64,000 bases of DNA from a virus (lineage: Duplodnaviria; Heunggongvirae; Uroviricota; Caudoviricetes), in the IMG/VR virus record IMGVR_UViG_3300044673_000278, positions 32,001-96,000 of that record; one strand, written 5' to 3'. Of this stretch, positions 1,526 through 59,575 are shown one piece after another. The translations under genes were made by a program, and so were the position numbers. The notes below the pieces were generated by a model that ran no database searches, was not told where the DNA came from, and saw nothing but the letters and a program-made list of their open reading frames with translations. Position 1 is the first letter of the stretch. Every line of letters begins with the position of its first letter.

Positions 1526-2546
1526 TCTCTAACCACTGTTGATGTAACTGATCCGTGGCCAAGTTCTTGCCTTTGGCTTCGACTTCAGTGTCGAAATAAG
1601 GACTAAACGACAGAGCCCAGTCGTTCACAGCACGATTCCAGCAGAAGTCACTGTGAGCACGGAGTTGCTGCTTCTTAAAACCTCTAGCAACAAGAGAATC
1701 AAGGTCTGGTCTAGTGTTTGGATCATGGTCAACCAAAAGATCTTCGCGGCTAACACTAAAGTGCATGCCAGGGCGAACGTCACGCCAAGACTCAATAACC
1801 CGCAAAACACGAGAGTCTTGAGGATTGATATATTCTCCTGTTTTGACCCAGTGGTGATGAATATCCAAAACAAGAGCAACATGCTCAGCCACACCAAGAG
1901 TAATGTCAAGCCCATTAGATACCTCGTCGTTTTCGATTGTAATTAAGTTTCGCGCTTCAGGACTCAATCGCTTGAGTGTGCGTAGGAATTTTTCTGGTCC
2001 GCCCTTGCCGCTCAAATGTACGTTGATCATGAATCCATGATCGTGCCATGTAGAACCATAGCCCATCCAACGAGCCATGTCTGCATGGTACTCAAATTCT
2101 AGGATACTGCGTTCTACAATTTCATCCGATTCGCTAGCCAGCACACAGAACTGTCCGGGATGAAAGCTTAGGCGTACACCCAGTCGGCGTGCTGCTTCGC
2201 CTACAGGAGCAAAGATTTTCTCACAGTGATCTTGAATCTCCTGACGTTGCCACCAGTCAATCCACGAGGGTTCAGTGTAGCCTTGCAGCATTTCACTGCC
2301 CAGTCGAACCATGCGCCGTTCGGGCGCCATGGCACCCACACGCTCTACCATCATCAATGCTGCACGAGCATTGTGGTTCATGATGTCCCATTGACGCTGT
2401 TCGGCTTCGTCCTTGTGTTCGCGAAGCCAGCGCATGGTAGTTGATCTGCCGTTGATATCACGGTCCTTGGCATTGACTTTCATGCCGCCAGTTTCACTGG
2501 GGTCATTGAGCCATTTGCAACAGAAGCCAAAACGAGGTGTAGTCAT
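1518..2546 (-). CDS. uvsE: UV-damage endonuclease UvsE/UvdE
   Basis: GFCC, RLSFHPGQF, IENDE, LDIHHH, RAHSD, VEAKGK motifs; start moved to ATG 2546 behind a sigma70 promoter. Confidence 0.92.
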   Translation of the reverse strand: MTTPRFGFCCKWLNDPSETGGMKVNAKDRDINGRSTTMRWLREHKDEAEQRQWDIMNHNARAALMMVERVGAMAPERRMVRLGSEMLQGYTEPSWIDWWQRQEIQDHCEKIFAPVGEAARRLGVRLSFHPGQFCVLASESDEIVERSILEFEYHADMARWMGYGSTWHDHGFMINVHLSGKGGPEKFLRTLKRLSPEARNLITIENDEVSNGLDITLGVAEHVALVLDIHHHWVKTGEYINPQDSRVLRVIESWRDVRPGMHFSVSREDLLVDHDPNTRPDLDSLVARGFKKQQLRAHSDFCWNRAVNDWALSFSPYFDTEVEAKGKNLATDQLHQQWLENA

Positions 2547-2553
2547 AAGTGTA

Positions 2554-2582
2554 ATTATACACTTATTTGAATTATTGATCAA
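2554..2582 (-). promoter_or_regulatory. sigma70-like promoter for uvsE (predicted leaderless)
   Basis: TTGATC-N17-TATAAT ending 7 nt before ATG 2546; no SD. Confidence 0.65.
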
Positions 2583-3490
2583 CCGCGTACAAGATCCAGT
2601 GTTACACAGTGAAATCCACCACCAAGAGTGCGGCTATGGCGCAGAGTCAGCGGAATGACTTCAAACTTATAACTTTTTAATGTACGAATCAGATCGGTTT
2701 GGGCAGCATCCACAATCACTGTATTGGGATCAACCACTAACATGTTCATAGCAATCCATTTTGATGCGTAGGGATATTCGTGGAAGCCTTGAGCAACCAC
2801 ATCACCTACCCAAATCTTTTGCCAACCGTCAAACACTCGCGGGCAGTTATCCAAATTGACTCTGCTGGCATTCAGCATCACAAGACCTTCACGCAATGGT
2901 ACAATGGTCGAGTCGATGTGTACACCAGCATAAAAGTTGCAAAGTTCAATTGTGACATCTGGGAATTGTTCACACAGCCAATTGTAAGCAGCACGATTGC
3001 CCGATGCTGATTCCAAAAACAGCATTTTGTCGCCTAATCTGGCCACATTGGCTGCATCCAAAATCATGCCTTCGTTTCGGGGCATGTGCAAGTAGTTGGC
3101 AGCAGAATCCACAACGTCATGATAGCATTGAAGTTCCATGTTGCGGCATGGATACATCATGGCAGGATCCACAATGGTATCGCCGTACACAAGGAAACGA
3201 TCTCTGGGACAGTAGTTGTACATGCCATCGTGTGCCTGGAAGTTCAGTGATTCTGGGCGCAGGACTTCTACGCCCAATTTGGTCAGTGTTGTGGCCAATC
3301 TATCCAAATCTTCGTTGGCTTCGTCGATGATCCACTGTGGCACAGCACCGCTGGGCACAGGTGTTTCTTTCCATGAAGTTTTTTCGCTTTCCAGTTTGAA
3401 CACTGGATCATGCACAGGCCAGTTGGCATGTGTGGCATCTCCCACAATGATTTTTCGCAGTGGACTCCACTCGTTGTAACTTGATATCAT
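2579..3490 (-). CDS. amidinotransferase (glycine/inosamine-phosphate amidinotransferase family)
   Basis: SYNEWSPL, CPRD, DAAN, HIDST and GGGFHCVTLD (Asp-His-Cys triad). Confidence 0.9.
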   Translation of the reverse strand: MISSYNEWSPLRKIIVGDATHANWPVHDPVFKLESEKTSWKETPVPSGAVPQWIIDEANEDLDRLATTLTKLGVEVLRPESLNFQAHDGMYNYCPRDRFLVYGDTIVDPAMMYPCRNMELQCYHDVVDSAANYLHMPRNEGMILDAANVARLGDKMLFLESASGNRAAYNWLCEQFPDVTIELCNFYAGVHIDSTIVPLREGLVMLNASRVNLDNCPRVFDGWQKIWVGDVVAQGFHEYPYASKWIAMNMLVVDPNTVIVDAAQTDLIRTLKSYKFEVIPLTLRHSRTLGGGFHCVTLDLVRG

Positions 3491-5224: not shown

Positions 5225-5226
5225 GT

Positions 5227-6853: not shown

Positions 6854-6877
6854 GTTAAATCCTTTTAAATATGTATC

Positions 6878-7672
6878 ATGAGTATTGCGTTTGATTTAAT
6901 TTCTGATTTGCATGTTGACACCTGGGAACATGAATTTGATTGGACTGGTTGTGCTACCAGCCCTTATTGTATTGTAGCAGGTGATATATCTAAAAATCGA
7001 CAGCAAATGGTCCAGGTACTGCGACACTTAGGTCAATGCTATCAAGCAGTGTTTTTCATTGATGGCAACGACGAGCATGTTGAACACTTGGAACACCTCA
7101 GTCCCAGTTATTCTAGCCTAGCTAGACAAATACAAAAAATTCCCAATGTTGTATACTTACAGGACAATGTAGTTGTAGTGGACGGAGTAGCCGTGGTAGG
7201 AACCAACGGATGGTGGGGCTATGATCTTGATCTAAGCATTGATCCTGTGAGTGTGGCTTCATGGTGGCAGGACAAAGCTCAAGTATCTGACTCTGCTGTC
7301 AAAGCTGTGGCAAAAATGGCCACAACAGATGCAACATACTTGGTCAGCAGTGTGCGTAGATTACAATCGCACCAAGATGTTAAAAAGATTGTGGTAGTAA
7401 CTCACACAGTGCCACTCAGTGAACTAATCGAGCACGACATTGAACTAGAAGGGACCATGCGTTTCAACTGCATGGGCAATGCCTATATGCAACAGGTTTT
7501 AATGGCCGATCACACAGACAAAATACACACCTGGTGCTTTGGACATTACCATGGATCAATTGATCAAATTCGCCACGGCGTGCGCTTTGTCAGCAATTGC
7601 AGGGGTCGGGGTAATACACCCTGGAATCAATATGTGTATCATCCCCGCCGAATTGTTGTGGATCTCAATTAA
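6878..7672 (+). CDS. calcineurin-like metallophosphoesterase
   Basis: SDLH, AGD, GNDE, THT, FGHYH motifs. Confidence 0.88.
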   Translation: MSIAFDLISDLHVDTWEHEFDWTGCATSPYCIVAGDISKNRQQMVQVLRHLGQCYQAVFFIDGNDEHVEHLEHLSPSYSSLARQIQKIPNVVYLQDNVVVVDGVAVVGTNGWWGYDLDLSIDPVSVASWWQDKAQVSDSAVKAVAKMATTDATYLVSSVRRLQSHQDVKKIVVVTHTVPLSELIEHDIELEGTMRFNCMGNAYMQQVLMADHTDKIHTWCFGHYHGSIDQIRHGVRFVSNCRGRGNTPWNQYVYHPRRIVVDLN

Positions 7673-7976: not shown

Positions 7977-7992
7977 GTTGTTTCCTTGATAG

Positions 7993-8018
7993 CAGTGGCA
8001 GCACCATTGCTGCCACTG
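7993..8018 (-). terminator. stable hairpin between hsp20 and clpS (terminator or 5' stabiliser)
   Basis: Perfect 11-bp inverted repeat CAGTGGCAGCA-ccat-TGCTGCCACTG next to a TAAATA box at 8019-8024. Confidence 0.5.
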
Positions 8019-8034
8019 TATTTACACTATTATA

Positions 8035-8548: not shown

Positions 8549-8812
8549 TTATACATGATTCATTGGTTCTATCAAACGATAATTGAGCAAATAGCTTTCA
8601 AAATTACTGGGTTTGGGATTCCAAGTCAGAGCAAAAAAGCTATAGGTAGTGTTGTCGTCAAACGTAACTCGTTTGGTGTATTTGATGTTTTTGGTGTTGT
8701 AGGCAATGCCGTGTTGCTTTGACCAACGATTGAGTTCTCTAGTGAGAATTTGATTCACATAAATGGCCGCTTGTCCAGCTGCATCTTTTGGCAAGCTGAA
8801 TTCGATGTACAT
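8549..8812 (-). CDS. hypothetical protein
   Basis: 87-aa ORF coupled to the rpsU stop (TGATG). Confidence 0.7.
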   Translation of the reverse strand: MYIEFSLPKDAAGQAAIYVNQILTRELNRWSKQHGIAYNTKNIKYTKRVTFDDNTTYSFFALTWNPKPSNFESYLLNYRLIEPMNHV

Positions 8813-9036
8813 CAGTACAGTTTTTTGGGCAAGGCCTGAGCTTCAAGCTGTTTTTGCCAACGATTTTTGGCAGCACTGCGTTTGCGTTTGCGAGTGGTAG
8901 TAGGCTTCTCGTAGAATTCGCGGTCACGCAAATCATTGAGTACGCCCGATGCTTGAATTTTCTTTTTGAACTTTCGCAATGCTCGTTCAACATTGCCATC
9001 TTGTACTAAGACACTGCGACCGTATAACTTACTCAT
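8812..9036 (-). CDS. rpsU: 30S ribosomal protein bS21
   Basis: V.V.DGNVERALRKFKKK, REFYEKP, RKRK..AA. Confidence 0.93.
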   Translation of the reverse strand: MSKLYGRSVLVQDGNVERALRKFKKKIQASGVLNDLRDREFYEKPTTTRKRKRSAAKNRWQKQLEAQALPKKLY

Positions 9037-10237
9037 TTACTTGTTTTAACTCCTTGGGAGTATTTACCATGTGTTCATCAATTTCTACGCGGTTAATACC
9101 CTTGCGAGCATATTCGGCCAATCGATACATGTGTGGCATCAACACACGTTCCAGTTCGCTGTGCAGGCCTCGGGCACCTGTTTTGTTCTTCATGGTGTTG
9201 TCAGCAATGGTTTCCAGCGCGGCCTGTGTGAATTCCAGTTCCACTTGATCCTGACGGAACAGCCACTGATACTGCTCAATGTAGCTGTGTTTGATATCAA
9301 TGAGAATACGGATCAAATCTTCGCGGGTGAGTTCTTCCAGTGCGACCCAGGCAGGGAAACGACCCACAAATTCTGGAATCATACCAAACTTGATAATGTC
9401 TTCGGGGTTGACTTCGGCCAAGCTAGCTTTGTCGTTGGCGGACTTTACTTGTCCACTAAAGCCAATGCTGGTGCCGCGGGTGCGATTCTTGACCATGGTG
9501 TCTAGGCCCACAAATGCACCTCCAGCAATGAACAGGATGTTTGTGGTATCAATTTCCACAGTTTCGCCTGAAGGATGCTTGCGACCGCCTTGTGGTACAA
9601 TCCTGCACTTGGTGCCTTCTACCAGCTTGAGCAGGGCTTGCTGTACACCTTCGCCCGACACGTCACGTGTGATACTGGCGCTTTCGCTGCGACGGCTGAT
9701 CTTGTCAACTTCGTCCAGGAACACAATACCACGTTCGCAACGTTTGACATCGTAGTCAGCAGCAGCAAACAGTCGGCTGATTAGGCTTTCAACATCGTCG
9801 CCTACATAACCTGCTTCTGTGAGGCTAGTAGCATCTGCAATCACAAAGGGCACATCAAGATAACGTGCCACTGATCGTGCCAACAGAGTCTTGCCTGAAC
9901 CTGTGGGGCCCAACATGAGAATGTTGACTTTTTCGATTTCAGTGTTCTTGTCTGTGTTGTTGATGCGCTTGTAGTGGTTGGCAATGGCCACACTCAGCAC
10001 TTTTTTAGCAGCGTCTTGTCCAATCACGTACTGATCAAGATGCGCTTTGATAGCCACCGGATCCAGTGTGGGTGTGGTAGGAGGCTTGCGCAAATCAATA
10101 TCTTCTTTGAGCAAGTTCTCACAAAGATCGACACATTCATTGCATATAGCAACGTCTGCGCCCACAATCAGTTTGGCCACTGCATCTTTGTGCTTGCCGC
10201 AAAAGCTACAGGTTTCAAGTGTTTCAGTTTGTTTCAT
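9029..10237 (-). CDS. clpX: ATP-dependent Clp protease ATPase ClpX
   Basis: CSFC..C..C zinc domain, GPTGSGKT, GYVG, DEVDK, RDVSGEGVQ, RKH, IGF loop, TGARGL. Confidence 0.97.
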   Translation of the reverse strand: MKQTETLETCSFCGKHKDAVAKLIVGADVAICNECVDLCENLLKEDIDLRKPPTTPTLDPVAIKAHLDQYVIGQDAAKKVLSVAIANHYKRINNTDKNTEIEKVNILMLGPTGSGKTLLARSVARYLDVPFVIADATSLTEAGYVGDDVESLISRLFAAADYDVKRCERGIVFLDEVDKISRRSESASITRDVSGEGVQQALLKLVEGTKCRIVPQGGRKHPSGETVEIDTTNILFIAGGAFVGLDTMVKNRTRGTSIGFSGQVKSANDKASLAEVNPEDIIKFGMIPEFVGRFPAWVALEELTREDLIRILIDIKHSYIEQYQWLFRQDQVELEFTQAALETIADNTMKNKTGARGLHSELERVLMPHMYRLAEYARKGINRVEIDEHMVNTPKELKQVNE

Positions 10238-11679
10238 GTGTTTCTAGTTTGTAGGCGTTGTGCAATCTGCTCGCGTTCGTTGTCGCTCAGCAGGTCGATG
10301 TCGTATTCACCTGTATCAATCTTTGAGATCAAATGATCAATATAGGCTTCGTTGTAAGTATAGTTAGCTGTTTGATTTTTGTCAACTAAAATCCAGTCTG
10401 TGCCATTGTGTTTAAACACCTGATTGGGCATCTTGTCTGTGCGAACATGACTGTCACCCTTTTTGGCATCATCCGGAAATACAGGACCAAACGTGCTCAG
10501 TGGCTCTCTGGGCAACTCATTGTCTGCTACCAACTTCATCCATGGCAGGATGTCAATTTCTCCTCGCACTAGTTTAGCACGTTCTCCTTTGAGAGTGGAT
10601 TCAGGATTTTGTTCCTTCCACAGCTTCATTGCAGCTTTGACATCGGGGTGATCTTCATTGAGCTCTTCTTCGTCATCTTCTGGCTCAGGCTCTGGTCGGT
10701 AAACCATGGGCTTGAGATCTTTGAAGTGATCAAAACCTTTTGTGAGATATGGATGCTGTTCTAGTATTGACTTTTCTGATTCTGGCTCTTTGGGTGGTGC
10801 GAACATCCAACCTGTAGGGTGTGGATCTTCGCTGGCTTTTTGTTCCGCAACATCCTCTGTTGGCGCTGGTACTTCTGCAGGCTCGGGCTCAGCAGGTGCT
10901 AATTTCAATGCTTCAAACACTCGCTGACGTTCCCACTTCAAACTCTCTGTGGCGGCCAATAACATCATGATAGCCAAAGGGTCAAACACCACAACCAACA
11001 GTATGATTACCCAGCGTACCGCTGCTTCCAACAAGTTCGCGTCAGCAGTGTCGCCATAGACCAAGGCGGCAATATATTTGATCGGGCCCACTTCGGCCTC
11101 GACCTTGCGTACTTCAGCTGCAATAGGCGCTCGTTCTTCGTTGAGTGCGGCAATCCTTTTTTGACTCTCTGCAATTTCTTTAAGTAAGCGACCACGCTCG
11201 GCCTGTTGGCTGCGACGAATTTGAACTGCTTTGTCTGCACCTTTTTCATCTGTTGAGCGGCCCATAACTTGGTCCACTGCTTCGTCAAGTTGTTTAAGCG
11301 CCTTACGGTTCGCATCTATGTTGTCCCGTTCTGTTCGTATCTTTTCGTCGTACACAGCAATCTTGGCCTGTACGTCTCCGCTGATCATGCCTTGGTCTGA
11401 GTGTGCCTTTGATAGAAATCCAAAGATACCCATTGATGTGATCAGCATCAACACTGCCACAGCAGGCACTAGGTACACTTTCATCAAGAATCGGCACTGG
11501 CGCCAATACTCGTGTAACCACAGTGTGACTACTACTTTGCCCAGTTCTAGGATTGAACCCATGACAATGATAGGCACAACCGCAGCAGCAAAAATAGCGG
11601 CTAGACCAGCTATTGAGTAGAAAGCGGCGATAATTGACAGGCTCAGGGCTACTGCCAATGTAATGTAACTTAGAAACAT
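10234..11679 (-). CDS. membrane protein with coiled coil and acidic/Pro-rich C-terminal region
   Basis: Three N-terminal TMs, coiled coil, VGPIKYIA, a further TM (VFDPLA). Confidence 0.75.
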   Translation of the reverse strand: MFLSYITLAVALSLSIIAAFYSIAGLAAIFAAAVVPIIVMGSILELGKVVVTLWLHEYWRQCRFLMKVYLVPAVAVLMLITSMGIFGFLSKAHSDQGMISGDVQAKIAVYDEKIRTERDNIDANRKALKQLDEAVDQVMGRSTDEKGADKAVQIRRSQQAERGRLLKEIAESQKRIAALNEERAPIAAEVRKVEAEVGPIKYIAALVYGDTADANLLEAAVRWVIILLVVVFDPLAIMMLLAATESLKWERQRVFEALKLAPAEPEPAEVPAPTEDVAEQKASEDPHPTGWMFAPPKEPESEKSILEQHPYLTKGFDHFKDLKPMVYRPEPEPEDDEEELNEDHPDVKAAMKLWKEQNPESTLKGERAKLVRGEIDILPWMKLVADNELPREPLSTFGPVFPDDAKKGDSHVRTDKMPNQVFKHNGTDWILVDKNQTANYTYNEAYIDHLISKIDTGEYDIDLLSDNEREQIAQRLQTRNT

Positions 11680-11683
11680 AGGA

Positions 11684-11971
11684 TTATTTAGTGCCCGCTA
11701 CACGGGCAATCACACTATGCTTTACTGATACCCAAGTAGCAAAGTTTGGATCGGGTACATCAAACCAAACACGTACAGACTTGCTGCCCCAGTTGTTTAT
11801 GAGTTTGCGTTTGACTCTGGGTTGGCCGCGCCAGTTATGAGTACCGTACAAGGTATTGGCTTCACGAATCAAAGCGTACCATGTATCAGTGTCGGTGATT
11901 TCCACCCACACTCTGTGGTAAGGGTGCATACCAGAAGCCGTTTCTTTAAGCGAATCAAGGGATGATGACAT
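11684..11971 (-). CDS. hypothetical protein
   Basis: 95-aa ORF in the local gene orientation. Confidence 0.6.
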   Translation of the reverse strand: MSSSLDSLKETASGMHPYHRVWVEITDTDTWYALIREANTLYGTHNWRGQPRVKRKLINNWGSKSVRVWFDVPDPNFATWVSVKHSVIARVAGTK

Positions 11972-16602: not shown

Positions 16603-16757
16603 ATCTTTTCAAACCACCATCCGTTGAGGCGGAATGTTTCCAGATCGCTGTCATGTGCCCAGGCTTCCATCCACAGGGAGCCGGCTTTCTGAATGTTCAG
16701 GCTAGTGTAGCGCAGGATTTCCAATGCGTCTTTTGTGTAGAACAAAATGCGTGTCAT
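16599..16757 (-). CDS. small hypothetical early protein
   Basis: AAGGAG SD before MTRILFY. Confidence 0.65.
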   Translation of the reverse strand: MTRILFYTKDALEILRYTSLNIQKAGSLWMEAWAHDSDLETFRLNGWWFEKI

Positions 16758-16786
16758 TGCTGGCTCCTTTTTGCTGAACATGCTGT

Positions 16787-16843
16787 ATTATAGCACGAGA
16801 GCCTTTTTTGGGCAAATCGCAAAAAGTAATACTCAAGTACTAC
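16787..16843 (-). promoter_or_regulatory. early promoter with upstream 18-bp palindrome
   Basis: TTGCCC-N17-TATAAT (16787-16815); GTAATACT-ca-AGTACTAC at 16826-16843. Confidence 0.7.
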
Positions 16844-30085: not shown

Positions 30086-30514
30086 TTACTCCAATCCTAT
30101 ATTTATGGTTTCAAACCAAATGTTTTGATCCGTTCCTAGCGCACTCAGCACTGGCTCAATGTCACTGGATTCGTTGAGATTCACAATCATTGGCACACCT
30201 GTGCAGTTTTGTTTCAAACCTCCCAAGGGGTCAGAACTGTTGTTGGCAAACACATCAGCAGATTCCACACGAAATTCAAACTGCCAAACGCCGTCGTTGC
30301 ACTGCGGAGGCACAATGTCTTGCGGTTGTGTATTCAAGCTGATCAACTGCATTATGGTTTCCCAGTTGCGTTGTTGATTTCTAGACTTGTTCCAGTCTGC
30401 AACTTCGTTTATTTTTTGTCCAGCACGATCAACAAAAGGAATCTGCCCAGCCTTGAAGTTGCCGGTGACTCCTGTGTAGGTGCAATCAAACAATGTTTTA
30501 CATATGATCTTCAT
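30086..30514 (-). CDS. hypothetical late protein
   Basis: TAAATA box 6 nt upstream of ATG. Confidence 0.75.
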   Translation of the reverse strand: MKIICKTLFDCTYTGVTGNFKAGQIPFVDRAGQKINEVADWNKSRNQQRNWETIMQLISLNTQPQDIVPPQCNDGVWQFEFRVESADVFANNSSDPLGGLKQNCTGVPMIVNLNESSDIEPVLSALGTDQNIWFETINIGLE

Positions 30515-30531
30515 TGTTGATATTTACGCCC

Positions 30532-36413: not shown

Positions 36414-37377
36414 GATTTTTCTTCCTTAATTCAATTTTGATTCTGCTGGTTTCTCTAGCTTGCATGATACTTAGTACGGTGGCCAAGCGACCATACTTCT
36501 TCACAGCATCATTGACATCCTTGCAATCTTCCCAATTGGGTATGCTCACTGCCCAACCCAACTCCACTGCACGATCAATCAGTTCCAAACCTGCTTGGTC
36601 TTGATCAGGTACCACTGTGACTTCTCGATCCAGGCTGCGAATCAGTCTGGCCTGCGCATCACTGATGGTGTTGTGCATCACTGCCAAGCCGCCAATGCTG
36701 AGAGCATCAAATATACCTTCCATGACCATGACATGTTGCCAAGATTCATGCTGTTGATCTATGCCAAACACATAGCCAGGTTGACTGTGATTGATGTACT
36801 TTGGTGATTTGTTGTCTAAGAATCTAGCAGTCCAGCCAATCAGTTTGTTGTCATAGGTGAATGGCACAGTGACATGTGGGCGAACCCAATGGATTCCATC
36901 ATTGCGTATGGCCGTGAGCATAGGAAAGTCTTCAGGCACACGTCGATCTCTAATGTAGTTCCAATACAAGGGCATGTCTGGTGTTATCAACTCCGATCCC
37001 GGTGGCAAATCATCTGACTCTTTGAACTCGATGCCTTGGATAGCATCTGACACACGCTTGCGATCATCGATGATGCCGTGTATGCTGCGATGCCTCAAAC
37101 TTTCCAAATTCAACACATCTATTTCAGCTTCGGGTACGCCCAACCAGCTCAACAGTCTACGAGCTTTGAAAGTTACTGTGCGCCCAAGAATAAAACTGGC
37201 TGTGTATCCGCAGTTGAAGCAATGATAGCTCCAACCCGATTCGTTGACTTTGAGTCCGCCGCGCTGACGTCGATCTGGATTTTGTCCGTTGTGTTGACAA
37301 CATACCGCATTGAAACTGATCCAGCCGCTGGGGCTGGATTTACGTTTTGCTGGCAAGTAAGTTTGTATGTCAAGCAT
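36391..37377 (-). CDS. DNA primase (gp61-like)
   Basis: Zn-binding CC.H...HCFNC; TOPRIM EGIFD, PDQD, KDVND. Confidence 0.9.
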   Translation of the reverse strand: MLDIQTYLPAKRKSSPSGWISFNAVCCQHNGQNPDRRQRGGLKVNESGWSYHCFNCGYTASFILGRTVTFKARRLLSWLGVPEAEIDVLNLESLRHRSIHGIIDDRKRVSDAIQGIEFKESDDLPPGSELITPDMPLYWNYIRDRRVPEDFPMLTAIRNDGIHWVRPHVTVPFTYDNKLIGWTARFLDNKSPKYINHSQPGYVFGIDQQHESWQHVMVMEGIFDALSIGGLAVMHNTISDAQARLIRSLDREVTVVPDQDQAGLELIDRAVELGWAVSIPNWEDCKDVNDAVKKYGRLATVLSIMQARETSRIKIELRKKNLVKRLRS

Positions 37378-37383
37378 CTGCTT

Positions 37384-37412
37384 ATTTTAACAGATATTGA
37401 CAGCGATATCAA
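37384..37412 (-). promoter_or_regulatory. sigma70-like promoter for primase-helicase (predicted leaderless)
   Basis: TTGATA-N17-TAAAAT ending 6 nt before ATG. Confidence 0.6.
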
Positions 37413-38479
37413 CGATATTGGAGATTGGTTATGGTACCGTTGTCAATCAAAACTGTGGCTGCTACAGTGCCCTGATACTGCAAAGGCAAGTAACCTGCTC
37501 CACCGCTGACAATGAATATACCTGCCACTTGACTGTTGTCGCCCAAAGTGGTATAGGCCTGTGCACCAGCGCCATTGCCCAAAATTTGCAGTCGGGGTGG
37601 TGCAACATAACCTTGTCCAGGATTGGTCAGTGTGATAGCAGTGACCACACCGTCTGTGACAGTGGCATTGGCTGTGGCACCAAAACCTAGGCTGTTGTTG
37701 AATGCCAAACGAATCAAAGGATGAAATCCTTCTACGTTCAAATGCCAACGTTTGGTTTCGTTGAAGAACTCGTAGCTGGCAGTGACATCGTACCAAACAC
37801 CCAAATAATCCTGTGCTGCTTGAGCTTTGATTGTGCCAGTGTAGTGGTCCAGATCCATGCTGATGGTTGTGAGTTGCTGGCCATTGGTTGGAAGTTCGCT
37901 GCTGTAGAATTCTGTGTTCTGTGTGGTGTTCACAGGCTCAGGTTGCAGTGCCCAATCTGGCCAATTTGTGGGGCCGGGCTGTAGCTGCTGTGCTTTGCCA
38001 TAAATGGTAGGAATGGTCAGCTCTTGGCTGGGCACAAACTCTGGGAATACTGAGTCCACAATGTTGCAGTTGCCGCGGGCACCCGAATTGTCGTCCACAA
38101 ATGCCGATTGTACATAGCTGCCTGCTGTGCGCTGAATGCTGTAGCTGCCGGGCTGTGCAACGACTTCAATGGTATCTGCACTGTTGAGCACAACTTTGAC
38201 CCGCCCAGTGGTTGCACTGAGTATGTCCATGTTTTTTTCCAGGATCAGTCTGTCCCCAGTTTGGTTCAGCAATCTAAAAACAAAACTGGATCCAGTGATG
38301 TTTACAGGCTTTTGGTCCTGATTAATGAATTCAAAGAGTAACACATTGTCTACTCCTTTGTTGATAGTAAGTTGTTTGGCGTACACTGGATCGTACCTCG
38401 CTGTGAAATAGCCACCGCCGGTGTCCACTAATAACACCCGAGTGATTTGTTGATATAGATAAACGGTGGTAGAATACAT
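37409..38479 (-). CDS. putative virion protein (BppU-like Ig N-terminus)
   Basis: F..INQDQKPVNITG; C-terminal GVVTAITLTNPGQGY and IVSGGAGY repeats. Confidence 0.65.
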   Translation of the reverse strand: MYSTTVYLYQQITRVLLVDTGGGYFTARYDPVYAKQLTINKGVDNVLLFEFINQDQKPVNITGSSFVFRLLNQTGDRLILEKNMDILSATTGRVKVVLNSADTIEVVAQPGSYSIQRTAGSYVQSAFVDDNSGARGNCNIVDSVFPEFVPSQELTIPTIYGKAQQLQPGPTNWPDWALQPEPVNTTQNTEFYSSELPTNGQQLTTISMDLDHYTGTIKAQAAQDYLGVWYDVTASYEFFNETKRWHLNVEGFHPLIRLAFNNSLGFGATANATVTDGVVTAITLTNPGQGYVAPPRLQILGNGAGAQAYTTLGDNSQVAGIFIVSGGAGYLPLQYQGTVAATVLIDNGTITNLQYR

Positions 38480-38484
38480 CTACC

Positions 38485-38504
38485 TATTTATCCGATTATA
38501 AATA
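38485..38504. promoter_or_regulatory. back-to-back T4-type late promoters
   Basis: TATTTA 38485-38490 (minus-strand TAAATA) and TATAAATA 38497-38504. Confidence 0.7.
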
Positions 38505-38510
38505 CCTCCG

Positions 38511-38888
38511 ATGGGCAATAACTTATTTGAAAAGCTGACTGAAAAATACCCGTTTATAACGCTGTGCATATATGCCAACGTTGAATACATAGGTGTAGTA
38601 CAAAACAGAGATGATGCTGTGACCACTATCTACGACTTTGGTGCAGTGCAAAGTCAGCAAGACAAGTTGGATTTCCTAGAACTGGCCAGTCAATGGTGGT
38701 GGGAAAGCAACAGATCTATACCCATCAACATATTCTTACGCGGTGATTGGGACCGTTTCAAAGGCACCTTGCGTACCTTCTCAAACAAAGATCTTGAAAT
38801 CTTACACGGGCCTATATGCAGCCTTCAAGACATAGCCCGCAAAAAATCTAAACGCAAATCAATTACGCTGGTTCGTCGCATGGACTGA
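38511..38888 (+). CDS. hypothetical protein
   Basis: 125-aa ORF, WWWESNRSIPINIFL motif, basic tail. Confidence 0.8.
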   Translation: MGNNLFEKLTEKYPFITLCIYANVEYIGVVQNRDDAVTTIYDFGAVQSQQDKLDFLELASQWWWESNRSIPINIFLRGDWDRFKGTLRTFSNKDLEILHGPICSLQDIARKKSKRKSITLVRRMD

Positions 38889-43417: not shown

Positions 43418-43918
43418 TTACCAGGCCTTGTTGTAATCTACAATTTCACAGTTGCGACTGACATCTTTGACAAAGTAAACACACGCAGGTTTATCGCCGT
43501 CGTCAAGAGGTACAGCCAACATCTGTCCATTTTTTAACTTGGGTGCATACCAGTTTACTTCGTGATACACATCCAGGATCTCGATGTCTGGAAAACTGGG
43601 TCTAAAGCTCGAAAGAGGATTGAATTCAAATACCTTGAATCCTCGATCATTGATTGATGTCAATGGTAGCACTTCTAGGTCACCAATCTCAGGTTCACCA
43701 ATTAAGATTTGCCAGTCCATAGGCATGCGGATTGTGTTGTGACCTATTCTCAGTACCAGTGCAGGAGATGTAAAGCTCTCTAAAAATATCAAGGGTATAA
43801 AGTGATAGTCCGGGTCTGCTGGATTGGAATTATCTAATATAGCAAAACGCATGTCATCTATTTCATCGGGCAAATGATCTAGATCATAATGTTGATTGTC
43901 TAAGGTTAATATACGCAT
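43418..43918 (-). CDS. hypothetical beta-rich protein
   Basis: 166-aa ORF behind TTGACA-N17-TAAAAT. Confidence 0.8.
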   Translation of the reverse strand: MRILTLDNQHYDLDHLPDEIDDMRFAILDNSNPADPDYHFIPLIFLESFTSPALVLRIGHNTIRMPMDWQILIGEPEIGDLEVLPLTSINDRGFKVFEFNPLSSFRPSFPDIEILDVYHEVNWYAPKLKNGQMLAVPLDDGDKPACVYFVKDVSRNCEIVDYNKAW

Positions 43919-43926
43919 ATGGTTTT

Positions 43927-43955
43927 ATTTTACTTGGTTCATTTCACATTGTCAA
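43927..43955 (-). promoter_or_regulatory. sigma70-like promoter (near-leaderless)
   Basis: TTGACA-N17-TAAAAT ending 8 nt before ATG 43918. Confidence 0.7.
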
Positions 43956-44634
43956 CAATTTTACGATGTATGTTGGCAGCAATGATCTCCTGAGTTGCTC
44001 GGTCAGTATGAAATGGGGAGTCGTAATCTCTGTTGGCAGCACTAAAATCGTATGCTGCTTGTCCAATGTCTGCATCTTTGAAATTCAATGGCAAGATTCC
44101 TGTGGCTTGAATTCGATTGTGCCAGTACTCAAAAACCCACTCGTCGCGTTGAGCACAAACTGAATCATTGTACATGTATTTGAGATATAGTTTAACTGCT
44201 TTGATCTGCTCAGCAGTTAAATTAAAAAATGGGTTGTTTTCAAGGTCTTGCCACACTGTACTGACTACCATACCTCCGTCGGTTTCTACATCGTCAAACG
44301 AGCCAACATACGGTGTGCCAGAGCTAGAGTAACAAGGATTGTAGTATATGAAGTTTTTTAGAGGAGCATGTTGATTATAAAATTTATCTTTTAAATATAC
44401 CTCGACCCTGCTGCTCCAAGTTTTTCCATACACAATTACACTGGGATTGAGTTTCAAAGCCTGATCAATTTGAAACCAAATAGCAGTATTGCTCATGCCT
44501 CCGTGTGCAAGATTCGTTACTTCGTAACCGTACTGGTCTTCTAGTATCTGACTAAAATGAGCCCTGGGCCCAGTGGTCTGAATTGTTTGAACAGTGCTGG
44601 CACAAAAACTATCGCCGCATACAACGATCTTCAT
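43939..44634 (-). CDS. SGNH/GDSL-like hypothetical protein
   Basis: CGDSF, NLAHGG.SN, C-terminal PFH. Confidence 0.65.
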   Translation of the reverse strand: MKIVVCGDSFCASTVQTIQTTGPRAHFSQILEDQYGYEVTNLAHGGMSNTAIWFQIDQALKLNPSVIVYGKTWSSRVEVYLKDKFYNQHAPLKNFIYYNPCYSSSGTPYVGSFDDVETDGGMVVSTVWQDLENNPFFNLTAEQIKAVKLYLKYMYNDSVCAQRDEWVFEYWHNRIQATGILPLNFKDADIGQAAYDFSAANRDYDSPFHTDRATQEIIAANIHRKIVDNVK

Positions 44635-46100
44635 GCCAGTTTCATCCACTCTAGTTTTTCAGCAGTAAACGGGTAGTTGGCTTCCTTGTAGTAGGCCTTG
44701 CGCTTGGTCAAATGGCGCTTGGCGAACTTGCATGTTGAAGTTATGTCCCAAATTTCTACGTGGTCTTTGTCCTCGGCTTTGCGGATACCACGACCGATAC
44801 TTTGAATAACCCGCACAAAACTCTTTCCTGGCTCCACCAGAACCAAGTTAAAGATCCTAGGTATGTTAATGCCCACAGCAGCCACACCGTATGTTGCCAC
44901 AATGATTTTGTCTGTTGCTTCGGCCACTGATTCGTATTCTGTTTGCCTGTCTTTGGATTTGGTTGCGCCAGAAACAAACACTGCACGATCACCCAGTCGT
45001 TCAACCAAGGCGTGTCCAGCAGCTACACGATCCACCAAGACCAGGGTATTGCCAGTTTCGTTGACCTGTTGAATCAGTGCTGCCATTGCGTCCAACCTGC
45101 CAGACTCTTCCAACAGGTATTTTAACTCACTTTGATAGTCTTTGAACTCTACATGGTCCACCAACTGCACAATATTCACATGGCACTGTGCCAGTACACC
45201 TTGCTGTTGTAGTTCGTTGGCTGACAGTTTGCTAACAACAGGACCCAAGCTGACCAGCAGTGCTTGGCTTTCGAACTTCTCTTTGGGCACTGTGCCTGTG
45301 AGGCCCCAGCGAATTGGCACTCTCGCCATTACACCTGTGAGCAAGGTTTTTAGTGCATCAGCTTTGGCCATGTGTACTTCGTCAACCATGACGCATACTA
45401 CATCTTCAATGAAGTCTTGTATGGTGATGTCTGCTACACCGTTCTTGGTATTCTTCATCAGCACGTTGAGGCTTTGCCATGTGCAGATGGTGTGTCTGTG
45501 CCCGTGTTCTTTTCTATCGCCAAAGTACACACCCACGTCCAGGCCAACGTTGCGATAGTCTTTTTCTGTTTGTCGCACAAGATCTTTGTTGGGCACAATC
45601 ACTATGCTACGACCAAATGGCTCCACTGCGGCGCTCAGCGTGGCAGTCATGATTGTTTTGCCTGCACCCGTGGCCACTTCCTGAATGCTCTGTGGATTTT
45701 CCAAGAAGTTGTTGACAATCTCCACCTGATAGTCGCGCAACATAATAGGCTGTCCTTCTGCAGGATGCCCTTTGGGCCATGTCTTGTGTGCCCAGCTGTG
45801 TTCTGTTACTTGTGTAAATTCAAATGTGTTGCTGTAGTCTCGTTGATCATCTAAGTCAATGTCGTATCCCAACTGCTCTAGCACAGGAACGATATCCGGC
45901 AAGAGATTTGTAAAGGTACTTCCGCCCAGTTGGAAATAGCTGACTTTGCCGTCCCAGCGTCCTAGCCTCACAGCAGGAAGGTAACGTGCATATGGCACAT
46001 CGTATTTGAAAGCGTTTACTAAACGTTTGCGAGCGTCAAGATCCAATCCTTCGATTTTGATGTTAACCTCGTCCTTGATAACTATGGTTGCTTGTTTCAT
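44631..46100 (-). CDS. uvsW: SF2 helicase UvsW
   Basis: WDG, LRDYQ, ATGAGKT, DEVH, LTGT, QSIGRGIR. Confidence 0.93.
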   Translation of the reverse strand: MKQATIVIKDEVNIKIEGLDLDARKRLVNAFKYDVPYARYLPAVRLGRWDGKVSYFQLGGSTFTNLLPDIVPVLEQLGYDIDLDDQRDYSNTFEFTQVTEHSWAHKTWPKGHPAEGQPIMLRDYQVEIVNNFLENPQSIQEVATGAGKTIMTATLSAAVEPFGRSIVIVPNKDLVRQTEKDYRNVGLDVGVYFGDRKEHGHRHTICTWQSLNVLMKNTKNGVADITIQDFIEDVVCVMVDEVHMAKADALKTLLTGVMARVPIRWGLTGTVPKEKFESQALLVSLGPVVSKLSANELQQQGVLAQCHVNIVQLVDHVEFKDYQSELKYLLEESGRLDAMAALIQQVNETGNTLVLVDRVAAGHALVERLGDRAVFVSGATKSKDRQTEYESVAEATDKIIVATYGVAAVGINIPRIFNLVLVEPGKSFVRVIQSIGRGIRKAEDKDHVEIWDITSTCKFAKRHLTKRKAYYKEANYPFTAEKLEWMKLA

Positions 46101-46107
46101 TGATACA

Positions 46108-46136
46108 AGTATATAGTTATCTTGCACAAAAGTCAA
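46108..46136 (-). promoter_or_regulatory. sigma70-like promoter for uvsW (predicted leaderless)
   Basis: TTGACT-N17-TATACT ending 7 nt before ATG 46100. Confidence 0.7.
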
Positions 46137-46161
46137 AAAAGCAGGCACCGAAGTGCCTGCT
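46135..46161 (-). terminator. rho-independent terminator with cUUCGg loop
   Basis: GCAGGCAC-UUCG-GUGCCUGC-UUUUUU. Confidence 0.9.
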
Positions 46162-46206
46162 GTAAAGCCCAGGGCCGGAGCCAACCGTTTGTTGCCCTGG
46201 GAAAAC

Positions 46207-48267: not shown

Positions 48268-49296
48268 TTAGTCAGCAGCCTTCATGCATGTGGTCTCTGC
48301 CAAACGCTTCCAGTTCAGCGGGCTCAGCTTGCGCAGGTCTGCAATCTTCAGCGCCATACGCAGGCTCATTTCACGCAGACGAGTCTGCTTCTCCGACATG
48401 AAGTCGATGATCTCGTCTTGCACACACTGATCAAAGTCGTAGTCCTGGAACAACACACCGTCCTTGGCAATCTGACGAATGCGCAGGATCTTGTCACGCA
48501 TGGTGTCCAAGGTCAGGTCCAGATAGTGACAACGGCTCTGCAGAGCGTCAAGGTGATCGCGCAGTTTCTGGCTCTTCATCTTGTCGAACTTCAAGTTGGT
48601 AATGAAGATCACCGAGCCTTTGAATTCAAAGCTGTCGGGGATGCCTTCTTGGCGCAGGATGCGGCTGTCAGCCAGCCACGAAATCTTACGCTTCTTGCCA
48701 GAGTCCAGGGCACCCTTCAGCAGGTTCAGTGCAACGTCATCCAGCAAGATGCTGTCACAGTCGTCAAACACAACCACGCAATTGGGGTCACTATATTTGT
48801 ACAGAGTTTGATACAGGCCAATGGGAGTGGCCGAACCTTTGACAACCTCAGCTCGCAGTCGCTTGCCGGCAATCTTGTCAAACATGCAAGCCTTGTCAAT
48901 CTCTTGCTCCACGCCAAAGCTCTTGCCAACACCCGGAGGGCCTGAAACAATCATAGCACGGATGTCGCCGCCGACACAGGCACGGCTCATTTCAGTCAGA
49001 ATGTCAAAACGCTCACGGATACGATCCATGGCTTGTTCGTCAGTTTCTTGCACAGCCACAGCAGGCTTTTCGATGTGAATGGTGTTGTCTTGTGTCATGC
49101 CGCTAGTATACTCGATATCTGCGATGTTGTCAACGCGGACACGAATCGTATCAGGGCAACGAGGAAAATTGTCACCGTTTTTCACAGTAACGTAGCTACC
49201 TTTGGCTCCAGTTTGAAAGCCAGACACCAGTTCAAACACAGTGTCTTTGATAGCAATACCGCGGTAGTTACCGTTGAGAATTCGAATGGTGGACAT
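48268..49296 (-). CDS. AAA+ ATPase
   Basis: GPPGVGKS, VVVFDDCD, IFITN, ALQSR. Confidence 0.88.
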   Translation of the reverse strand: MSTIRILNGNYRGIAIKDTVFELVSGFQTGAKGSYVTVKNGDNFPRCPDTIRVRVDNIADIEYTSGMTQDNTIHIEKPAVAVQETDEQAMDRIRERFDILTEMSRACVGGDIRAMIVSGPPGVGKSFGVEQEIDKACMFDKIAGKRLRAEVVKGSATPIGLYQTLYKYSDPNCVVVFDDCDSILLDDVALNLLKGALDSGKKRKISWLADSRILRQEGIPDSFEFKGSVIFITNLKFDKMKSQKLRDHLDALQSRCHYLDLTLDTMRDKILRIRQIAKDGVLFQDYDFDQCVQDEIIDFMSEKQTRLREMSLRMALKIADLRKLSPLNWKRLAETTCMKAAD

Positions 49297-50093: not shown

Positions 50094-50354
50094 CTCAGCA
50101 GAAAGTAGTATCAAAGTAAGATCCGCTTCGTTGCGAAACGAAATCCAGTAGAGACGAGGGGAAAAGGGATCAGGGCGAGATCCGTAACGGCCGTGCCAGG
50201 GACCTTGTGCGTCCCAACTGCTGGTTTTGAACTTTTCTTTACAGATCCTTTCGATCTCCCTGGCGTTGCGATTAAACTCAGTGAACCGCAGAGCCACAGT
50301 GTGCCTGTGCTCTCGGAACATTTTGTATCTGCCGTTTAACTTGACAATTTTCAT
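50082..50354 (-). CDS. hypothetical early protein
   Basis: 90-aa ORF directly behind a promoter. Confidence 0.7.
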   Translation of the reverse strand: MKIVKLNGRYKMFREHRHTVALRFTEFNRNAREIERICKEKFKTSSWDAQGPWHGRYGSRPDPFSPRLYWISFRNEADLTLILLSAELTK

Positions 50355-50360
50355 GCCCTA

Positions 50361-50389
50361 ATTGTAGCACTGAGCGAATTATTGGTCAA
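50361..50389 (-). promoter_or_regulatory. early sigma70-like promoter (predicted leaderless)
   Basis: TTGACC-N17-TACAAT ending 6 nt before ATG 50354. Confidence 0.75.
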
Positions 50390-51935: not shown

Positions 51936-51947
51936 TAAATATCCCAC

Positions 51948-52751
51948 ATGAAATACACTGTAGTTACCACATTTTCAGCCGACGGTTATAAACGTTATGG
52001 CCAGCGCATGATACAGACATTTTTGCAAAATTGGCCACAACAAGTTGATCTGCTGGTCTATGCAGAAAATTGCACAGTCACAGAAACAGCACCCAATCTG
52101 CAGGTGTTTGATTTGGCCACTGCCAGCCCCGAACTAGTCCAGTTCAAAACAAAATGGCAAGGAGTGCCCAAGGCCAACGGTGACGTCAGCGACGATCCAG
52201 TCAGACGCCAGAGAAAAGATGCTGGCAAAGGTTTTAAGTGGGACGCTGTGAGATTCAGTCACAAAGTGTATGCTATATTTGCTGCTGCTCGTGTATGCAA
52301 AACAGATTGGTTGATCTGGATGGACGCAGACACAGTGTGCCACAGCCCGCTGGACATTGAATTTCTCCATCGTATGTGCGATACCAAAAGAGATATTTGT
52401 TATCTGGGTCGTGCCAAAAAATACACCGAGTGCGGACTGTACGCAATGAACCTCCGCAGTGCAGCCACACAAAAATTCTTACACGAGTTCCAACGCTATT
52501 ACGACGATGCAGAACAGGGAATCTTTACTCTAATGGAGTGGCACGATAGTTTTGTGTTTGATCATGTTAGAATCAACACTGGACTACAGGGAACAGACTG
52601 GAGCAGCCATTTGATTTCAGGTGAAGGCCATCCACTGATCAACACTGAATGGGGTGCGTACCTTGATCATCTCAAAGGTGATCGCAAGGATCTAGGACGC
52701 AGCAAAGTCAAAGACCTAAAGGTAATAAGAAAAGAAGGCTATTGGCAGTGA
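51948..52751 (+). CDS. GT-A glycosyltransferase-like protein
   Basis: RFSHKV, WMDAD, ECG, WHDS, DHLKG. Confidence 0.75.
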   Translation: MKYTVVTTFSADGYKRYGQRMIQTFLQNWPQQVDLLVYAENCTVTETAPNLQVFDLATASPELVQFKTKWQGVPKANGDVSDDPVRRQRKDAGKGFKWDAVRFSHKVYAIFAAARVCKTDWLIWMDADTVCHSPLDIEFLHRMCDTKRDICYLGRAKKYTECGLYAMNLRSAATQKFLHEFQRYYDDAEQGIFTLMEWHDSFVFDHVRINTGLQGTDWSSHLISGEGHPLINTEWGAYLDHLKGDRKDLGRSKVKDLKVIRKEGYWQ

Positions 52752-57682: not shown

Positions 57683-58362
57683 ATGTCCCGCTGCTGACAG
57701 TATTCGGTGAGAATGCGTTCCCGGTGCCATTCGTTGCCTTGCGGTGTATCAGCAAACTCCTGAAAGCATGGCGTGCCAAGTGTGTAATGCAGTAACTTGG
57801 CGTCGGCATTTGGCCCGTATTCATCGGGCAACCAGTTCCATTCTTTGGGGAGTTCACCAATTCGAGCATCATCTAACCACGAGAAGCGGTGGAGGAAACT
57901 GCCGGTGCTGTGTTGGACGAAGTCAGGGGTAAGTTTCCGGTTAGGAAAGCTAGCACAATTCCACAGAATAACACTACTCCAATTTTTTCTAGGATAGTTT
58001 TCATTTTTTGCCCCAAGGTATTTTACAGGCATGCGAGTTTGGTAATCGTGTTTGACCACTTGCACATCACAGGTATGATCACGCATGTTCCAGAGTTCGG
58101 CAATGTCGCCACGCACGATCATGTCTCCGTCAATGAAAATAGCATGACCTTCGTAGTCTTGTAGGTATGGTACTAGAAAACGTGTGTAGATAAAGTGATT
58201 GCTGCCGTCGGTGTGCGTTTCAGAATATTCTTTGAACAGATTCAGTGCAACTGGTACGATGGCCACTGGTTGGCTTGAGTTGCGAATAATAGAGTTCGCA
58301 CACACATGATAGGCTATGGCTTCTCTGGGATCATACCCTATGAATACTGGAATTGGTTTCAT
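57679..58362 (-). CDS. GT-A glycosyltransferase (GT8-like)
   Basis: FIGYD.RE, TRFLVP, FIDGD, YPRKNWSS, HYTLGTP. Confidence 0.85.
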   Translation of the reverse strand: MKPIPVFIGYDPREAIAYHVCANSIIRNSSQPVAIVPVALNLFKEYSETHTDGSNHFIYTRFLVPYLQDYEGHAIFIDGDMIVRGDIAELWNMRDHTCDVQVVKHDYQTRMPVKYLGAKNENYPRKNWSSVILWNCASFPNRKLTPDFVQHSTGSFLHRFSWLDDARIGELPKEWNWLPDEYGPNADAKLLHYTLGTPCFQEFADTPQGNEWHRERILTEYCQQRDI

Positions 58363-58789
58363 TGTTACACACTGACAAAATATAACTGCCGTGCCTATGA
58401 TGTTCTACTGTGGAGAAAAATTTACGCAGTAACTGGTCAATGCTGACATCGTCAAATGCTTGTCGCCACTCGGGCTTTTTCTTTACCGCCAATGTTACAA
58501 CTACAAAACTTTTGGCACAACCTGCAATGTTATTTAATGTCGCCGCAGGATCGTCAAGGTATTCCAAAACTCCCAACAACAAGCCAAGATCAAATTGTTC
58601 TTGTAGTTTCACGGGTTGATCAAGGTCTGCAACAATGTCAGCAGTGTCACAGCGATCAATACCCAGGTACTTGGAAGGTTTTACGTAGTCTAAAACTTCT
58701 CGATTGCCGCAGCCAAAATCCACTATGCTAACGTTGTTGGGTATGTAGTCTTTGACAAATTCCCAACGATCGCTCCAGGGATTTTTCAT
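58331..58789 (-). CDS. class I SAM-dependent methyltransferase
   Basis: VDFGCG, YLGID, GVLEY. Confidence 0.82.
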   Translation of the reverse strand: MKNPWSDRWEFVKDYIPNNVSIVDFGCGNREVLDYVKPSKYLGIDRCDTADIVADLDQPVKLQEQFDLGLLLGVLEYLDDPAATLNNIAGCAKSFVVVTLAVKKKPEWRQAFDDVSIDQLLRKFFSTVEHHRHGSYILSVCNNETNSSIHRV

Positions 58790-59550
58790 CTGCGTTCAAT
58801 GTCCTCTTCTACGCAATTTGTACCGTATTGGATTTCGATCAGTTTCAGTGGTTGGTCAGTTTCGTTGCACAACTGATGCCATTCTTGACAACGGATGAAA
58901 GTATGCTCATGCACGTCAAGATGACACTTGACTTCAGGATCAGTGCTGGCTTGATCCAGTGTGTACACTGTGGCTGTGCCTTCGGCCACAAACCAAAATT
59001 CAGCACGTTGGTCATGTCGTTGCATGCTCAAACATGTTTTGGGCGCTACTGTAAGTTCTTTGAGTTTGGTATTGGCACCTACTTCGTGCAGCACACGATA
59101 GTAACCCCAGGTTCGTTGAGTCTTGGGCTTTTTCCAATCTTCAAGAATCCAGCTAGAACTGTTCTTTTTGTCCTCGCCGCCTACCCCAAACACAAAACTC
59201 AATCGAGATCCTGCAAGATCCATCTCGGGGATATTGTCCTTTGTACGGTCACCACCGTTGGCAAAGATAATTTCTGCATCAGGATACTTTTGTCTCACAC
59301 GGATTATAGCATCCTTGCTGGATCCGTCATCGTCGTTGTATGTAACAACTTCGTCAACAATGCGCAAGGCGCTGACCAGTGCAAAACGTTCGCTCATAGG
59401 CATGAATGGTCGACCTTTTTTACGAGTCAACCATTCATCTGAGTTGAGTCCCACAACAAGCTTGTCGCCCAGTTGTTTGGCTGCATGAAAGTATGCTAAA
59501 TGCCCGCTGTGAATGGGATCAAATCCCCCGGTAACGATTACGATTTTCAT
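58786..59550 (-). CDS. cytidylyltransferase (TagD/RfaE-like) fused to a type II mannose-6-P-isomerase-like cupin
   Basis: GGFDPIHSGH, NSD, FANGGDR, SSS; then WG.Y, LSMQRH, IEIQYG, EEDIER. Confidence 0.9.
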   Translation of the reverse strand: MKIVIVTGGFDPIHSGHLAYFHAAKQLGDKLVVGLNSDEWLTRKKGRPFMPMSERFALVSALRIVDEVVTYNDDDGSSKDAIIRVRQKYPDAEIIFANGGDRTKDNIPEMDLAGSRLSFVFGVGGEDKKNSSSWILEDWKKPKTQRTWGYYRVLHEVGANTKLKELTVAPKTCLSMQRHDQRAEFWFVAEGTATVYTLDQASTDPEVKCHLDVHEHTFIRCQEWHQLCNETDQPLKLIEIQYGTNCVEEDIERR

Positions 59551-59575
59551 AGTGCTATTTACAGGCTTAGCTGTA

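Follow-up and report, generated by a model that had tools for sequence, protein, structure and literature searches.

Promoter boxes directly upstream of Shine-Dalgarno-less start codons suggest leaderless early and late mRNAs in a clade of freshwater jumbo phages

The window analysed here is a 64 kb stretch of viral DNA (bases 32001-96000) from a 251,693-bp IMG/VR contig, IMGVR_UViG_3300044673_000278; the whole contig is labelled G000. Some genes of this phage start with an ATG that lies a few nucleotides after a promoter box and is devoid of a Shine-Dalgarno (SD) site, and leaderless or nearly leaderless mRNA from such box-abutting promoters is probably the best explanation. Transcription would begin with the A of the ATG of the first gene, or no more than ~3 nt ahead of it, at ~30-40% of recognisable promoters, and both promoter classes would be involved, viz., the host sigma70-type early class (TTGACA, 17 nt, TATAAT) and the gp55-type late class (core TAAATA). 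The SD-less, AUG-only first genes would most likely be translated leaderless, the ribosome and initiator tRNA recognising the 5'-terminal AUG. The remaining promoter-proximal genes would have ~10-25-nt leaders with a strong AGGAG-type site, intermediate lengths being almost absent. We infer the transcript 5' ends, the translation route and any regulatory use of this split from the sequence.

Box-to-start spacing and properties of box-adjacent starts

Gene starts in G000 and in two relatives, G001 and G002 (260-300 kb; G002 is 262 kb and ~75% complete), whose proteins are 39-89% identical to those of the window phage, were called by our own simple caller. Since this caller uses coding potential only, upstream motifs were without influence and could not bias the called starts. 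A first-pass annotation of the window had proposed that two promoter classes each contain genes whose box ends just before an SD-less ATG, and had named a histogram of box-to-start distances as a check. The histogram was bimodal in all three genomes. When pooled, TAAATA was found 4-7 nt before 53 starts, 8-15 nt before 4 and 16-31 nt before 74 (15/22/16, 0/1/3 and 28/25/21 in G000, G001 and G002, respectively). The distances from TTGACA-17-TATAAT sites (score of at least 10) to the start were 5-9 nt in 25 cases (mode 6), 10-15 nt in none and 16-33 nt in 59. With modal spacers of 5 nt after TAAATA and 6 nt after the -10 hexamer, the A of the ATG falls at the expected +1. Leadered late promoters have A at positions 6 and 7 after the box in 57% and 54% of cases, the same place where box-adjacent genes have the A of their ATG.

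The spacing was enriched over background. In G000, an ATG follows 24 of the 87 TAAATA sites at 4-7 nt, as compared to ~7 expected from the 8-40 nt background, and 15 of these 24 are starts predicted from coding potential alone. The box stands at 4-7 nt before 15 of 215 predicted ATG starts but before only 9 of the 8350 remaining ATGs (odds ratio 69, P = 6.5e-19). A co-oriented start was present within 45 nt downstream of 46/87 TAAATA sites vs 8 for the inverted word, and the flanking preferences of TAAATA were alike whether it stood 5 nt or 20 nt from the start. An unbiased scan of hexamers located 4-7 nt before predicted ATG starts returned TAAATA as the sole non-SD word among the top ten, with 15, 22 and 16 occurrences in the three genomes vs ~0.2 expected. 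The possibility that TAA stop codons of upstream genes generated this enrichment was rejected, as other hexamers containing TAA were not enriched. Since the scan yielded only SD words and TAAATA, the signal is not a by-product of TAA stops or of AT-richness.

The box-adjacent starts also differed in character from other starts. The duplex with the anti-SD was weaker than -3.5 kcal/mol at every box-adjacent start in G000, with a median near 0, and its median in leadered late genes was -5.8 kcal/mol. All 78 box-adjacent starts (53/53 late and 25/25 early) use ATG, as compared to 727 of 964 genes overall (75%). The first 36 nt of box-adjacent genes fold more weakly (mean -1.8 vs -2.8 kcal/mol, P = 1.4e-4).

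Box-adjacent genes of the window and their promoter classes

All twelve sites cited by the first-pass annotation as promoter boxes abutting SD-less ATGs were present in the sequence as described. The five sigma70-type sites are all on the minus strand and read TTGAyn, a 17-nt spacer and TAnAnT, followed by 6-8 nt to the ATG; an independent consensus scan recovered four of them with 10-11 of 12 matches and a 17-bp spacer. The seven late-type sites have TAAATA 5-6 nt before the ATG (6878+, 11679-, 30514-, 38479-, 38511+, 51948+ and 59550-).

2544-2582, minus strand: early promoter of the UvdE gene (Pfam UvdE); TTGATC, 17 nt, TATAAT, 7 nt, ATG at 2546
37375-37412, minus strand: early promoter of the primase gene; TTGATA, 17 nt, TAAAAT, 6 nt, ATG at 37377
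43916-43955, minus strand: early promoter of the phrog_11279 gene; TTGACA, 17 nt, TAAAAT, 8 nt, ATG at 43918
46098-46161, minus strand: hairpin and early promoter of uvsW; TTGACT, 17 nt, TATACT, 7 nt, ATG at 46100
50352-50389, minus strand: early promoter of a 90-amino-acid open reading frame (ORF); TTGACC, 17 nt, TACAAT, 6 nt, ATG at 50354
6866-6880, plus strand: late box of a metallophosphoesterase-like gene; TAAATA, 6 nt, ATG at 6878
11677-11690, minus strand: late box of a 481-amino-acid gene; TAAATA, 5 nt, ATG at 11679
30512-30526, minus strand: late box; TAAATA, 6 nt, ATG at 30514, with a hairpin and T tract just before the box
38477-38513, both strands: bidirectional late module; on the plus strand CAT, 5 nt, TATTTA, 8 nt, TAAATA, 6 nt, ATG
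51936-51950, plus strand: late box of a 267-amino-acid gene leading a block of sugar genes; TAAATA, 6 nt, ATG at 51948
59548-59561, minus strand: late box of a heptose kinase/adenylyltransferase-like gene; TAAATA, 5 nt, ATG at 59550

Protein alignments agreed with several of these starts. Position 3 of the PHROG endonuclease profile aligns with residue 6 of UvdE, which favours ATG 2546 over TTG 2582. The primase of G001 aligns residue 1 to residue 1 with that of the window, and its gene keeps the -10 box 6 nt before the ATG. The phrog_11279 profile aligns 1-154 to 1-154 with the 43918 protein, and the N-terminus of the uvsW profile fits ATG 46100, the -35 box of which is directly preceded by a terminator hairpin (46161-46140). 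The weakest case is 50354, which has a low coding score, no family match and a G001 orthologue without the box. Among the late genes, the 6878 orthologue has the same 6-nt spacing in G002, and in G001 it begins with ATGATG, the box being 3 nt from the first and 6 nt from the second ATG. The box of the 11679 orthologues is at 4 nt in G001 and 5 nt in G002, and the protein alignment begins at residue 1. The profile of the 59550 gene aligns 1-113 to 1-107, and its G001 orthologue has the box at 5 nt. At 30514, the coding-score caller chose a TTG 21 nt downstream instead, yet this TTG has no SD. The module at 38477-38513 occupies a 31-bp intergenic gap and feeds two divergent genes, with starts at 38479 (-) and 38511 (+), the latter of which agrees with the N-terminus of the profile.

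The existence of two promoter classes, each with a subset of SD-less first genes abutting the box, was borne out by the spacing, the exclusive use of ATG, conservation and the presence of a gp55-type sigma factor. The gene for the latter lies at 162897-163781 of the contig (phrog_12791, E = 6e-76; phrog_234, E = 2.5e-23; tblastn with T4 gp55, E = 6.5e-7). A tblastn search of the contig, which is rated 72% complete, with T4 gp45 and gp44 had no match at E < 0.01. The sigma70-type promoters precede genes of DNA metabolism (UvdE, primase, UvsW and an exonuclease). The box-adjacent genes behind TAAATA include those for the portal, virion proteins and a baseplate wedge protein, and other genes of the structural region are behind leadered boxes. 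The TAAATA core is invariant by selection, and the two bases preceding it are mostly G or A, not TA, as compared with the T4 TATAAATA-type box at -10. The T4 late promoter consists of an 8-bp TATA box at -10, roughly one turn of the helix before the transcription start (PMC2988020), and the geometry of the late boxes fits because the T4 box sits at that position.

The SD sites which the first-pass annotation had named for gene 32, iscU and the gene at 31000 were confirmed. Its description of the architecture as pervasive was overstated, since ~26 of 291 genes (~9%) are affected, though these account for 30-40% of recognisable promoters.

A gp23-type major capsid gene, located beyond the window at 145874-147070 of the contig (Pfam Gp23, E = 1.7e-97), is SD-led (TAGGAGA). 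It has no TAAATA box within 70 nt, and the neighbouring portal gene and a 72-amino-acid gene are box-adjacent. A split by protein abundance was considered and dropped: the capsid gene is SD-led and the portal gene box-adjacent, yet several very large late genes are SD-led, and no clear rule emerged.

One further early-type site lies inside a gene.

49098-49133, minus strand: TTGACA-17-TATACT (11 of 12 matches) inside the ORF 48268-49296, 6 nt before an in-frame internal ATG

The ORF 48268-49296 is a phrog_1250 gene, the full-length start of which is well supported. A shorter phrog_1250 isoform could arise from an internal leaderless transcript at this site.

Conservation in the clade and weighing of other readings

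The source of the window is an uncultured, T4-related freshwater jumbo myovirus with T4-type replication and late-transcription genes. The G+C content of G000 is 46%, and most genes of the window are on the minus strand. They encode the UvdE endonuclease, both ribonucleotide reductase subunits, a ligase, a DnaB-type helicase, a primase, a small DnaE-like polymerase, UvsW, a gene-32-type single-stranded DNA-binding protein and the ribosomal protein bS21. Among the relatives of the phage are Sinorhizobium phage Phosso and Agrobacterium phage Atu_ph07. Megablast with 20 kb revealed no DNA-level match to cultured phages, and the nearest isolates by UvsW protein identity were Phosso (54%), Atu_ph07 (51%) and Pseudomonas phage PA5oct (51%). 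Closer relatives are widespread in IMG/VR and metagenomes, with UvsW loci numbering at least 598 (78-89% identity) and portal loci at least 581; clade members near completeness measure 330-350 kb.

Across G000, G001 and G002, most box-adjacent genes have the box at an unchanged distance in spite of different flanks, with protein alignments that begin at residue 1. Upstream of the portal gene, TAAATA was kept in 59 of 67 distinct metagenomic regions, at 7 nt in 58 and at 5 nt in one. In seven other portal regions no box was found at the start chosen by the script, and in at least one of these the chosen ATG lay upstream of the shared start. For the 43918 gene, TTGACx-17-TAnnnT was present 5-9 nt before the ATG in 37 of 38 distinct upstream regions, with spacer sequences unrelated between groups. 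The hairpin, promoter and ATG at 6-8 nt of uvsW were kept in ~20 distinct relatives; in other relatives, uvsW abuts an upstream ORF, also without SD. The uvsW gene (window 44631-46184; loci L002-L081) was SD-less in every relative examined, whether it had its own promoter or an abutting ORF, and many exchanges of its upstream neighbourhood have taken place within the clade. The flanks of these 80 loci contain few late boxes, too few to judge the late class by.

Bidirectional late modules of 28-31 bp (CAT, TATTTA, 5-8 nt, TAAATA, ATG) serve divergent gene pairs at three unrelated loci, and are too short to accommodate a leader. Two other clade genomes, G007 and G008, also had similarly arranged box pairs among their pattern matches. 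The copies in G001 are as follows.

99014-99050 of G001 (L087:19014-19050): bidirectional late module
272454-272487 of G001 (L096:12454-12487): bidirectional late module

Could the boxes be something other than promoters that define the transcript start? The genes would then be read from longer polycistronic transcripts, with the AT-rich box acting in the RNA as an unstructured, SD-independent landing or re-initiation site. Many box-adjacent genes, such as portal and 11679, do begin within ~20 nt of an upstream stop codon, uvsW is SD-less even in relatives where no promoter precedes it, and ~45% of abutting genes have no clear SD. We nevertheless regard this reading as unlikely. In the early cases a complete -35 box is present, with a spacer of exactly 17 bp, and the promoter often comes right behind a terminator hairpin. 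SD-led late genes also have TAAATA, with the same flank preferences, but at a distance of 16-31 nt that rules out a role as ribosome site. A 5'-terminal AUG, unlike an internal landing pad, would be expected to leave the gap at 8-15 nt and to restrict starts to ATG, and no other AT-rich hexamer was enriched at the box position.

A second alternative is that the start codons are wrong, the real SD-led starts lying downstream and the box-adjacent ATG being the first triplet of a short leader. Three sigma70 hits absent from the list of the first-pass annotation point this way, viz., window 16781, contig 1571 and contig 3363: in each of them a strong AAAGGAG-type site precedes a second, in-frame ATG located 24 nt farther downstream. 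All three were withdrawn as leaderless candidates. As a general account it is most improbable. An in-frame downstream start with a strong SD was found for just 11 of the 78 box-adjacent starts, a set that includes these three hits, which matches the background rate of 100 of 649 other genes. Orthologous proteins align from the first residue of both, the PHROG profiles start within residues 1-9 of several box-adjacent proteins and so support the chosen ATGs, and 66 of the 78 starts are the first possible start codon of the ORF.

The three withdrawn hits belong to repeated early cassettes, in which a -10 box stands 5-6 nt before the first of two in-frame ATGs. Either the first ATG is merely the start of a leader, or both starts are used.

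16757-16810 of the window, minus strand: repeated early cassette
contig 1571: repeated early cassette
contig 3363: repeated early cassette

With the simple caller's starts, ~45% of genes abutting or overlapping an upstream gene in G000, G001 and G002 have no recognisable SD, and SD-less initiation by coupling may be common in the clade.

Several points weigh against leaderless transcription from the abutting boxes. The 5' ends are predicted from promoter geometry. Spacers of 7-8 nt may leave a leader of 1-3 nt, and the portal spacer conserves an A at -3. Many box-adjacent genes closely follow another gene, so that re-initiation on longer transcripts is possible, and uvsW is apparently read by re-initiation in those relatives where it abuts an upstream ORF without SD. 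Because ~45% of all starts predicted by the simple caller have no clear SD, the absence of SD alone is weak evidence. Three sigma70 hits proved to be leader cassettes, as described above. The reading also presupposes a host whose ribosomes translate leaderless mRNA well.

As for the host, the nearest cellular matches of the phage bS21, obtained by a search limited to peptide patterns, were metagenome-assembled genomes of Gemmatimonadota from lakes and sediments (61-67% identity over 44-48 residues), matches too weak, and too dependent on this method, to name a host. Such genomes are much more GC-rich than the window phage. Neither psbA nor WhiB, sought as host clues, was found, and the look-up of IscU in the Atlas was uninformative on the host.

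Cultured relatives, bS21 and known leaderless systems

We counted TAAATA followed at 4-7 nt by ATG, and the reversed pattern as control, in five genomes of the clade and four cultured phages.

G000: pattern 24, control 4
G001: pattern 33, control 4
G002: pattern 29, control 11
G007: pattern 43, control 16
G008: pattern 35, control 13
T4: pattern 16, control 20
Phosso: pattern 8, control 6
Atu_ph07: pattern 36, control 56
PA5oct: pattern 39, control 58

The box-to-ATG enrichment was not found in T4, Phosso, Atu_ph07 or PA5oct. Since these four controls are without enrichment and all five clade genomes have it, the box-abutting design is specific to the freshwater clade. Phosso, Atu_ph07 and PA5oct resemble the window phage in their UvsW (51-54% identical), and Phosso also shares the gene order UvsW, mini-DnaE, primase, helicase, the presence of TAAATA before late genes, and bS21. 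In contrast, the TAAATA boxes in the sampled region of Phosso are mostly 20-30 nt before the start, and in most cases an SD follows. Like those of the clade, the late promoters of T4 combine a short TATA-type box at -10 with the absence of a -35 element, are served by a gp55-type sigma factor and precede structural genes (PMC2988020). They differ in that T4 has no excess of TAAATA 4-7 nt before ATG, and the clade core TAAATA is without the leading TA.

The first-pass annotation had further suggested a connection between the split and the ribosomal protein bS21, the gene of which is itself of the SD-led late class.

8812-9066, minus strand: phage bS21 gene (8812-9036), preceded by an AAGGAG SD and, at 24 nt, by a TAAATA box of its own

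This layout recurs in the G001 orthologue (74% identity), and bS21 is also present in G004 and G005. A late translational switch has been considered, in which ribosomes carrying the phage bS21 would favour either leaderless or SD-led mRNA: the protein is encoded behind a late box, its place on the ribosome is close to the anti-SD, and late expression is known for other phage bS21 genes (PMC9723584). Chen et al. described bS21 phages of a different, low-G+C clade infecting Bacteroidetes (PMC9723584). The expected co-occurrence of bS21 with the leaderless design was not borne out, as Phosso carries bS21 without box-to-ATG enrichment, and G002 has 16 box-adjacent late starts while bS21 was not found in its 262 kb (~75% complete). 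In addition, leaderless early genes would be translated before the late bS21 exists, and no gene for another initiation factor (IF1, IF3 or S1) was found in the contig. We consider such a switch very doubtful.

Leaderless phage mRNA is already known. Leaderless middle and late transcripts of the Thermus phages phiYS40 and Lalka27a have been mapped, and in these large lytic phages most transcripts of a given temporal class begin directly with the initiator codon (PMC3594737; bioRxiv 10.64898/2026.04.20.719267). Their late boxes differ from TAAATA (TAGGGT in Lalka27a), and their start sites are mapped, whereas those of the window phage are predicted from promoter geometry. The hosts of phiYS40 and Lalka27a belong to Deinococcus-Thermus, in which leaderless mRNA is the norm (PMC12340547). 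The window phage also differs in being T4-related and in showing the arrangement at about a third of its promoters, in both early and late classes, with SD-led genes interleaved. The mRNA of lambda cI is leaderless as well (PMC10491246). In lambda cI transcribed from PRM and in leaderless genes of Actinobacteria and Deinococcus, the -10 box abuts the ORF, no SD is present and the AUG is 5'-terminal (PMC10491246, PMC4633059, PMC4007540), as proposed here. Those cases are single regulatory genes or a host-wide habit, whereas in the clade the arrangement is a conserved part of two temporal classes of a lytic jumbo phage. No leaderless transcripts occur in the jumbo phages phiKZ and AR9 (PMC8244752, PMC5312081), and they are not mentioned in the PA5oct study (PMC7318152). 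The literature searched held no report of leaderless transcripts from T4-type late promoters. With the Thermus phages as precedent, what appears to be new is that T4-type late and host-type early promoters would make leaderless mRNA.

It is conceivable, though we think it improbable, that the clade runs two parallel channels of translation initiation, the leaderless first genes of early and late units continuing to be translated when SD-dependent initiation is changed by the phage or by host stress, as through a remodelling of ribosomes that involves the phage bS21. If so, the box-to-ATG design would be a second regulatory layer and a marker of a host lineage that handles leaderless mRNA well. 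Since bacteria differ in how efficiently they translate leaderless mRNA, the design may help to narrow down the host. For annotation, gene callers that expect an SD will misplace box-adjacent starts, and the calling of starts and promoters in hundreds of related contigs could use the empty 8-15-nt zone as a simple criterion. The bidirectional late modules of 28-31 bp would, if their start sites are confirmed, be among the most compact two-gene expression units known. The clade offers a testable, clade-wide case in which T4-type late and host-type early promoters both appear leaderless, while those of T4 and the nearest cultured jumbo phages do not.

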